From Chlamydiia bacterium (GTDB taxonomy: Bacteria > Chlamydiota > Chlamydiia > Chlamydiales > JAAKFQ01), in NCBI GenBank assembly GCA_041688145.1, contig JBDNIV010000031.1, forward strand, positions 1-17,967: 17,967 bases of DNA, written 5' to 3'. Positions 12,001 through 15,000 of the stretch are shown here, in pieces. Position numbers: made by a program. Each line of letters starts with the position of its first letter. Positions within the stretch are counted from its first letter, which is position 1.

Positions 12001-15000
12001 GTATTATTGCAGGTTGTGTTGTAGATGAAGGCACTATTAGCCGCACAAACGTAGCTAAGCTAATCCGTGATGGCAAAAAAGTCTGGCAAGGTAATATCGA
12101 CTCTATTAAGCGTGTAAAAGAAGACGTAAAAGAAGTTTCTAAAGGCATTGAGTGTGGTATTTGCCTAAGAGGAACAAATGAAGTCCAAGAAGGCGACAAG
12201 ATAGAGTGCTTTGAAGTCATCTACCATGAGCCTGAGCTATAATGCGACGACAAAAAAAGATTCAGTCTCTTCTTGTAGAAGTGCTTTCTGAAGTCATCCG
12301 CAAGGATGTCAAAGATCCTCGCATCAGTGATCTTCTGACTATTATGAGCGTTGAAGTCTCAAGCGATTTGCAAAGTGCAAAAGTAGCTATTAGCGTAATG
12401 GGCAGTGACAAAGTAAAAGCTGAAACCCTGCATGCTCTTAACGAACAATCCCCTCGCATCTCAGCAATTTCACTTAGAAAAGTCACAATACGTTATTTTC
12501 CTAAGCTCACCTTCCATATGGACACAGCGCTTGAACACGAGCTTCGCATCCACGATGTCCTGACTAAAATAGAAAACGAGAGAAAAAGTAGACTTTCCCA
12601 TGACGACGCCTCTTAAATCTGAGGGCATCTTACTCCTCAATAAAAGCTGTGGATACACGTCGTTTGACCTTGTTCGAAAGCTACGTAAAATCACTGGAAT
12701 TTCCAAAATAGGCCACGCTGGCACGCTTGATCCTTTTGCTTCAGGACTTATGGTCATGCTGATTGGCCGAAGTTATACCAAGATGAGCGATCGTTTTATG
12801 AGCTCTGATAAAGCGTATAAAGCGTGCGTGAAACTTGGAGAAGACACCTCTACGTTTGACCTTGAGGGAGACACTGCAAGTACTTCTGACTACACCCCCT
12901 CTTTAGAAGAAGTAAAAGCTGCAATTCAAGAGCAGCAAGGGACTAAAGAACAAATCCCTCCTATGTTTTCAGCTAAAAAGGTTCAAGGTAAAAGGCTCTA
13001 TGAGCTTGCTCGAAAAGGAATTACCATAGAACGCAAAGCTCAACTCGTGACCTTAGAAACAAATCTTATACGCTATGACTACCCTGAGCTGGAAATAGAT
13101 GTCACCTGCTCTAAAGGCACGTATATACGAGCAGTTGCAGATGAAATTGGGAAAAAACTCACCTGCGGCGCTCACTTAAAAAGCCTTGTCCGCACACGCT
13201 CAGGCCACTTTTCTTTAGACGAATGCGTCTCTTTAGAAACGCTAGAACCTTCTAATTGGCAAGAGTTTTTGAGGCATCTATGAAGTTTTTCACCTCATTA
13301 GAAGCTGTGTCTAAAGAGGCTTTATCAGAGCCCTCTTTTAAAGAGATCTTGAAGCGGCCTATCCATTTGACTATTGGGAATTTTGACGGTGTACACCTAG
13401 GCCATAGAGCTCTTTTCCAGCACCTAAAAAATGAAGGCCTATCGTGTGTCATTACTTTTACCAATCACCCTATGCACTTTTTCTTTCCCGATACTGCCAC
13501 CCCTCTAATCACCTCTTTTGAAGAGAAAAAACAACTTATTGAAGAAGCTGGCATCGATATTTTAATCGCTTTAGAATTCACGCACTCTATTAGTAAAATG
13601 GGCTATGAAACTTTTTTAAAAAATATTTATAGCTGCATGCCCTTTAAGAGTCTTACCCTAGGGAAAGGAGCTGCTTTAGGGCACAAAAGACTAGGTACAG
13701 AAAAAAAACTCATCCCTCTTTCTGAAAAGATGGACTTTACCCTCACATATCTACCTAAGATCACTTTAGATGGTCTGCCTCTATCCAGTGCTGCTATTCG
13801 CAAATGGCAAAGTGAAGGCAATGATTTTTTAGCTGATAAGGCTTTAGGGAAAAGCTCTCTAAAAAGTCTAAATTAAGAGTCTTACCTCAAAAACTCCCTT
13901 TTTCTAAAAAGACCTTGGTGTCAAAAGATTCTTTTGTAATACTCTCTTTTTAATCTTTCAAGGAGATGCTCACCTATGGCAACTGCTTCAGCAAAGTGCG
14001 CCTTATCAGGCTGCGCAAAAAGTATCGTAGAGAAACATACATGCCCTCGCTGTCATCGCACCCCTTATTGCTCTAACAAGCACCAAAAAGCTGACTGGAA
14101 AACTCATAAAGCTGCTTGCAAAAGGTTTCAGCAAGAAACTAATCTAGCTCGAAAAGCTGTCCACGCTGATATAAAAGTGGAAGAGGGCTCTTTTGAAAAG
14201 GGATTTAAAGTACAAAAAATTGTTATTAAAGGTCCAGTAGCTGGCGGCGCTATATACGACGCTCAAGGAGGAGAGCTTGAGCTTAACAATGTGACCTTTT
14301 CTGAATCAAAAAAACTTACTTTTCTTAGAGCCTATAGAGTTACATTCATTGGACAGATCACCATTTCTGGAAATAATCCTAATTGCGGACTTTTTATCCA
14401 GGCTAGCGAAATGGTTATCAACTCTCCTGTAACAATCACATGTGCGGGTCCTATTATGTTAGAAGTAGGCGAGCTTATCTTAAACGCAGGTATTAAACTC
14501 CAATGTAGCGGTGGCCTCACTCTAAGAAAGTGTCCCCAAATCAAGACCCCAGATACAGAAGAAGGTCTTGATATATTGAATACAGAGGTAGTAAAGACCA
14601 TCTCACAAGCCAGTATAATTTTTGATGAGGAACAGACTGCAAAAAAATCATCTCTTCAAAGTGATCGCTCTTCCTCTGATAAAGAAAAACTCTTCTTATG
14701 AACATTCATGGCAATAATATATGAGTACATTCTCCACCCTTGCCTACCATTTAAGGCATCCTCTTACCTGGATGCCCTCTGCACAAGAAAGCAGCGCTGA
14801 AGCTACAAGAAAGCCGCTTATTATCCCCCACTCTTTTGGCCTATGGGCCCCGAGCCTTATTGGGGTATGCGCGCTTTCTTTTGCTCTTCATACTAAGGGC
14901 AAAAAAGACTACCGAATATTAATAGCAGCTTGTTTTCTAGCTATTACCACTCTATTTTATTTAACGACATATCTCATTAAAAGCTGCGCACCTAACCTAG

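Follow-up and report, generated by a model that had tools for sequence, protein, structure and literature searches.

A chlamydial RibF reduced to its FMN-adenylyltransferase module, and the distribution of flavin genes among chlamydiae

FAD synthetases (FADS) are the closest described relatives of the protein analysed here. In type I, the bifunctional RibF represented by the C. ammoniagenes enzyme (CaFADS, PDB 2X0K), an FMN-adenylyltransferase (FMNAT) module (PF06574) is combined with a C-terminal riboflavin kinase module (PF01687), featuring a PTAN motif and a catalytic Glu. In type II, FMNAT is followed by a shorter, PTAN-less C-terminal module; here, as in stand-alone FMNATs and in plastid AtRibF1/2, FMNAT is kept and the kinase motifs are lost, and the plastid kinase-less form has been called cyanobacterial in origin (PMC2972280). 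Type II proteins are usually paralogs, found beside a full RibF; T. pallidum, M. conjunctivae and E. saphenum have no other RibF, and Chlamydiae are listed as type I only (Yruela 2010, PMC2972280).

Uptake of phosphorylated flavins has also been described. Listeria RibU brings in FMN as well as FAD out of the host's cytosol: a single carrier can transport the two, each of which is more abundant than riboflavin in host cells (PMC9060500). Import of FMN and FAD by Rickettsia has been deduced from gene absence (PMC5615194). The binding protein of T. pallidum is riboflavin-specific (PMC3573665) which, in an organism having a type II RibF only, hints at unseen kinases. For Borrelia, the converting enzyme is not named in the examined parts of PMC13432742. 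Chlamydiae would resemble Listeria in scavenging phosphorylated flavins inside a host cell, and a Listeria ribC ribF mutant mimics those of them without RibF; Listeria, however, keeps both enzymes, unlike the kinase-less chlamydiae. Like Rickettsia, they are obligate intracellular, with flavin import deduced from missing genes, but Rickettsia is without RibF entirely, whereas chlamydiae display intermediate stages. Since flavin-nucleotide import is known in Listeria and deduced in Rickettsia, and a kinase-less RibF is in essence a FADS type II, the parasitism considered here is of a known kind, not the new one that a preliminary description of this locus had seen in it.

The ribF locus

The window, i.e. 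the whole stretch of DNA analysed (17,967 nucleotides), belongs to a chlamydial genome, G000, which is 92.3% complete. The features of the locus are the following.

12600..13283, + strand: truB, the conserved upstream neighbour, located after infB and rbfA and marking the native ribF locus
13280..13876, + strand: ribF, FMNAT module only (PF06574 the sole Pfam match; alignment to CaFADS 19-185; fold match)
13394..13405, + strand: HxGH motif (H39-H42), intact, as in 50 of 50 kinase-less RibFs
13661..13669, + strand: Gx(D/N) motif changed to GKG, where G130 corresponds to CaFADS N125; contigs from three runs support this codon
13700..13702, + strand: E141, co-varying with G130 (37 of 63 G variants versus 1 of 60 D variants, a tally inflated by kinship)
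13757..13759, + strand: K160, co-varying with G130 (53 of 63 G variants versus 11 of 60 D variants, likewise inflated by kinship)
13784..13801, + strand: SSxxxR motif (S169-R174), intact
13877..13975, no strand: spacer of 99 bp in place of the kinase-coding sequence, in which a remnant was not found
13976..14701, + strand: downstream gene encoding a MYND finger, unrelated and outside the system

The ribF frame encodes 198 aa and its start overlaps the truB stop, in the gene order infB, rbfA, truB, ribF; the position after truB, common to type I RibFs, had been correctly recognized in the preliminary description. The FAD_syn domain (PF06574) is matched with E 2.5e-34 (118.8 bits versus a cut-off of 27), and the alignment to CaFADS, spanning residues 19-185, ends at the module boundary. 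An AlphaFold model of the protein (pLDDT 94.9) superimposes on CaFADS's FMNAT module at a TMq of 0.82. Fold, HxGH and SSxxxR are shared with type I; unlike type I, the protein has no kinase module, with neither PTAN nor catalytic Glu, carries Gly at the N125 position and scores 84 bits against TIGR00083, under the 184-bit cut-off. Being without any C-terminal module, it does not correspond to type II either, while 29 kinase-less relatives do. The chlamydial form differs further from type II in being the sole copy and standing at the native locus, in having been eroded more than once, in many cases down to complete truncation, and in frequently carrying G130.

The truncation is real. Contigs from four of four runs, belonging to four studies (one possibly the source sample), span the ribF stop without a single difference, and the nearest two database proteins are likewise short (197 aa, 76% identity; 200 aa, 54% identity): an assembly or frameshift artefact is thereby ruled out. 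Frames of 205-207 aa are found in three relatives (G024, G031, G146), so that a truncation common to relatives, as originally proposed, stands. The clean stop followed by an AT-rich spacer holds for this genome (66% AT versus 58% in the window), and no kinase-like frame was found in the 99 bp; it does not hold in general, as indicated by the relic domains described below.

In many relatives ychF is the usual gene after ribF; no conserved helper gene was detected beside ribF in relatives, and a scan for promoters and terminators gave matches at chance level. In the downstream gene the MYND zinc finger, a mostly eukaryotic domain, is N-terminal, and an uncharacterised 528-aa gene follows (14721-16307): the two possibly encode secreted proteins inserted after ribF. 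Elsewhere in the window, a HAD hydrolase and a CofD/YvcK-like gene are inserted between rpe and efp (2078-3773), and a gene at 17175-17939 matches the Legionella major outer membrane protein family (PF05150).

Loss of flavin genes in the source genome and in other chlamydiae

Within the bounds set by the completeness of G000, no PF01687 match was found, and HMMs of chlamydial kinases and relics, run against its six frames, gave no match (best E-values 0.36-3.7), ruling out a split or relocated kinase. The check for a CTP-dependent riboflavin kinase, left pending by the preliminary description, was run: PF01982 gave no match in G000, and such a kinase was found in 0 of 5 genomes, so that this replacement is ruled out for them as well. 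RibE and RibH Pfams, and RibAB, RibE, RibH and RibD in tblastn searches, gave no match. In G000 neither a kinase homolog nor riboflavin synthesis genes were thus found, while flavin users are encoded: ApbE, NqrB-E and ThyX, as anticipated, along with AroC, Dus and three pyridine-nucleotide oxidoreductases. Na+-NQR binds free riboflavin, which implies that some riboflavin supply is needed. A 172-aa cytidylyltransferase-like protein with a hydrophobic N-terminus is encoded on contig C2 (L211:1758-2276).

The survey was extended to 300 scored chlamydial genomes, at least 85% complete (G005 was left unscored). FAD_syn is above cut-off in 225, the kinase in 105 and riboflavin synthase in 86. When ten weak FAD_syn matches are treated as absent, the genomes fall into nested classes: 84 feature the full pathway, 20 are without riboflavin synthase, 121 have FMNAT only and 72 no RibF, with 3 others. 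Of the 86 genomes with riboflavin synthase, 84 also have the kinase, and the synthase is present in none of the 121 with FMNAT only. The widespread absence of PF01687, asserted earlier, is thus found (195 of 300), but just 121 of these genomes retain FMNAT. Similarly, the kinase is missing in 16 of the 30 listed families (including f10, with one xenolog), but in five of the 16 the whole gene is mostly absent. RibF-less members occur in f4, f7, f10, f11, f12 and other lineages; many of them belong to f7 and f10, which also hold FMNAT-only members. In all 13 RibF-less genomes examined, of 72, ribF is absent beside truB; some of the others may be assembly gaps. Missing riboflavin synthesis has been reported for fish chlamydiae (PMC10448858); in the literature searched, covering few subscription papers, nothing was found on a chlamydial RibF losing its kinase. 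What is new here is the ordered, repeated loss across the phylum, along with the altered active site.

Among 50 kinase-less RibFs, hand-picked to span families and aligned, 29 keep a relic domain and 21 are cleanly truncated. None of the 29 relic barrels has PTAN and the catalytic Glu is mostly gone, while GxY is retained; a relic query is closest in score to spirochaete clusters of 266-275 aa. In f9 (L034:2546-3481, L057, L058, L032, L033) the relic barrel shows dN/dS of 0.10-0.17 and has its own C-terminal tail: conservation similar to that of the FMNAT module suggests a new role. Near full-length kinase domains with a damaged PTAN are found in L031 (G138) and in P0139, P0177, P0211, P0232 and P0235, apparently early stages of the same decay. 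In a TruB-RbfA-FMNAT tree (98 rows, quick search, weak deep forks), kinase-less forms, such as G110 and the f18 members, nest in supported kinase-positive groups, apart from the large set formed by f1, f7, f9, f10, f24, f26, f28 and f30; several independent kinase losses are therefore likely. A named Simkaniaceae record groups inside f9.

Three genomes depart from the nested pattern. In G033 there is just one Lum_binding fragment, interrupted by a stop, and RibH is missing, which rules this genome out as a riboflavin maker without RibF. G229 (94% complete; L222 / L228) has ribD-ribE-ribAB-ribH, and RibF was not found, either in the genome or beside truB: an assembly gap, contamination or a real exception. 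In G171 (L051:2743-3678), whose genus is otherwise without RibF, a cytidylyltransferase-like domain is fused to a riboflavin kinase with PTAN, within a menaquinone gene cluster; this is apparently a FAD synthetase of a different type, gained anew. A widespread RibL-type replacement was ruled out, as the weak matches found in many genomes are heptose-phosphate adenylyltransferase-like.

These data bear on the idea that riboflavin itself enters the cell and is phosphorylated there by some kinase or phosphotransferase, either non-homologous or promiscuous. The riboflavin need of NQR and the G229 operon are consistent with it, as are the riboflavin-specific binding protein of T. pallidum, with its type II RibF (PMC3573665), and three R. 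helvetica (Rhabdochlamydia) proteins that share 22-28% identity with riboflavin transporters (PMC6490308). We consider it improbable: beside the negative result for the CTP-dependent kinase, none of the 121 FMNAT-only genomes keeps riboflavin synthase, the 72 FMNAT-less genomes would be left unexplained, and the RibL-like fusion of G171 has no close match in 79 other genomes.

Selection on the FMNAT module and its altered active site

The FMNAT module is under purifying selection: of 14 kinase-less pairs, the 10 with computable dS give dN/dS of 0.06-0.39, including 0.07 for a pair where both members carry G130, against 0.09-0.13 in three full-length pairs with computable dS; the G000/G146 pair is near saturation. 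The G130 form, too, is kept by selection. By score, fold, HxGH and SSxxxR, the protein of G000 agrees with the bacterial FMNAT module; the exception is Gx(D/N), replaced by GKG. All 103 full-length homologs compared carry D or N at position 130, and all 49 kinase-positive chlamydial RibFs carry D, N, E or Q. Among kinase-less proteins, by contrast, G occupies it in 20 of the 50 picked RibFs and 63 of the 133 cluster representatives. A single full-length protein, P0198, carries G. Eighteen core positions are preserved to about the same degree whether the variant has G or D. K160 aligns to CaFADS 153-157, a region proposed to contact ATP, and Gx(D/N) contacts the nucleotide ribose (PMC2573891).

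In CaFADS, N125A abolishes both forward and reverse activity (PMC3509593), and the isolated N-domain is inactive in extracts (PMC2573891): the 198-aa RibF may therefore not catalyse the reaction. Along these lines, the G130/K160/E141 form might have a changed chemistry (FAD hydrolysis, relaxed nucleotide choice) or be a non-catalytic flavin binder, as could be read from the skewed distribution of G130, from the ribose contact of the motif and from the conserved f9 relic domain. We rate this as very improbable, given the G of P0198 and the fact that D and G alternate between G053 and G060, two sister species, a pattern more suggestive of tolerance than of a switch. With the G130 form, a residue regarded as essential can be tested biochemically at low cost.

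Flavin import and the direction of the reaction

RibF-less genomes keep FMN users: AroC was found in 40 of 40 and Dus in 39 of 40 (40 of the 72 were tested), similarly to FMNAT-only genomes (38 and 37 of 40, out of 121), and ThyX is kept in the one RibF-less genome tested. Loss of FMN users as the cause of ribF loss is thus ruled out, and the retention of FMN- and FAD-dependent enzymes indicates that both nucleotides reach relatives without RibF. The claim that FMN, not FAD, is imported, and only adenylylated, is not well supported, in view of these 72 of 300 genomes, of a reversible reaction (kcat 17 forward, 13 reverse in CaFADS; PMC3509593) and of the Gly at the N125 position; the broader proposal, import of phosphorylated host flavin, fares better, dependence being well supported by the ordered losses.

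Dependence on host flavin nucleotides is likely. With a probability of about 0.5, host FMN and/or FAD would be imported and interconverted by the kinase-less RibF, the losses having proceeded stepwise: riboflavin synthesis, riboflavin kinase, then the whole ribF. Having lost synthesis and then the kinase, the cell could not activate riboflavin; phosphorylated flavins would be taken from the host, probably via a carrier passing both FMN and FAD. The retained module would bind a flavin nucleotide along with ATP or pyrophosphate and balance the pools (FMN + ATP <-> FAD + PPi), so that such a carrier, the simplest way to account for RibF-less relatives that need both nucleotides, would leave FMNAT a useful yet losable interconverter. 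While the truncation, the failure to find kinase and synthesis homologs, the ordered losses, the purifying selection and the altered motif are observed, we infer import, activity of the G130 form and net direction.

Import of FMN only, with all FAD made by RibF in the forward direction, is rather unlikely. The order of losses fits it, and the strong FMNAT conservation suggests a need; the kinase-less Listeria type II FADS (LmFADS-II) runs forward (PMC9299109), and eight full-pathway genomes are without both family I and H+-pyrophosphatase, so that forward synthesis is independent of them. FAD import, however, would require a fresh gain in each ribF-losing lineage (f4, f7, f10, f11, f12 and others), and the CaFADS residue in whose place G130 stands is required there for the forward reaction.

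Conversely, FAD could be the main import, with RibF working backwards (FAD + PPi -> FMN + ATP) in a high-pyrophosphate cell. Family I pyrophosphatase is found in 5 of 121 FMNAT-only genomes versus 70 of 105 kinase-positive ones, and is missing in f1, f7, f9, f10 and f30; no H+-PPase was found in the tested f1, f9 and f10 genomes, nor the DHHA2 type in five genomes. G000, which lacks all three types, has FMN users to supply (AroC, Dus) and a PFK with a GGDD motif, typical of PPi-dependent enzymes; PPi disposal in pyrophosphatase-less families may rely on such a PFK or on a HAD enzyme. All 18 G130 sequences of the 300-genome sample come from genomes without family I PPase, but so do 24 D/N variants, and the association is confounded by clade. 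The eight full-pathway genomes mentioned above weaken the pyrophosphatase argument, RibF-less genomes obtain FMN without RibF, and three HAD and three Nudix proteins could remove PPi or split FAD. Reversal as the main route is, on balance, quite unlikely.

For the carrier assumed by the preferred reading, import and interconversion of both nucleotides, candidates are several. G000 has eight EamA proteins, five of them in one subgroup; four of the five are tandem paralogs on contig C2 (L184:2204-5837), adjoining two tRNA genes. A profile of this subgroup, built from kinase-less genomes and with a signal that follows clades, finds a match in 156 of the 195 genomes without the kinase and in 32 of the 105 that have it (2 of 20 synthase-less, kinase-keeping ones; 29 of 84 with the full pathway). 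The ImpX-like matches reported earlier were not reproduced: family, fold and atlas searches, whose libraries may be without ImpX/RibN-specific models, gave generic DMT matches only. Neither an FMN riboswitch nor a rib gene context accompanies the EamA candidates, and no ECF/RibU-family match emerged in the scanned subset of the 111 predicted G000 membrane proteins. On a par with them as candidates are two Vut_1 proteins and a divergent member of the TLC family (C42:23334-24752). It is possible, although unlikely, that in the large clade without pyrophosphatase the truncated RibF was remodelled (G130, K160, E141) to act physiologically as a FAD pyrophosphorylase, making FMN and ATP from PPi and FAD taken from the host, with flavin nucleotides supplied by a carrier of the DMT/EamA or TLC family; if true, a FAD synthetase would be working in reverse in vivo, and the carrier family would be a new one for flavin nucleotides.

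In about 40% of the sampled chlamydial genomes, a gene to which profile libraries give the name 'bifunctional riboflavin kinase/FAD synthetase' cannot activate riboflavin, which would make metabolic models, and designs of host-free media for these symbionts, wrong. The four-stage pattern of presence and absence can be used in the search for the FMN/FAD carrier, and the series is a natural record of an intracellular bacterium becoming Rickettsia-like in its flavin dependence.
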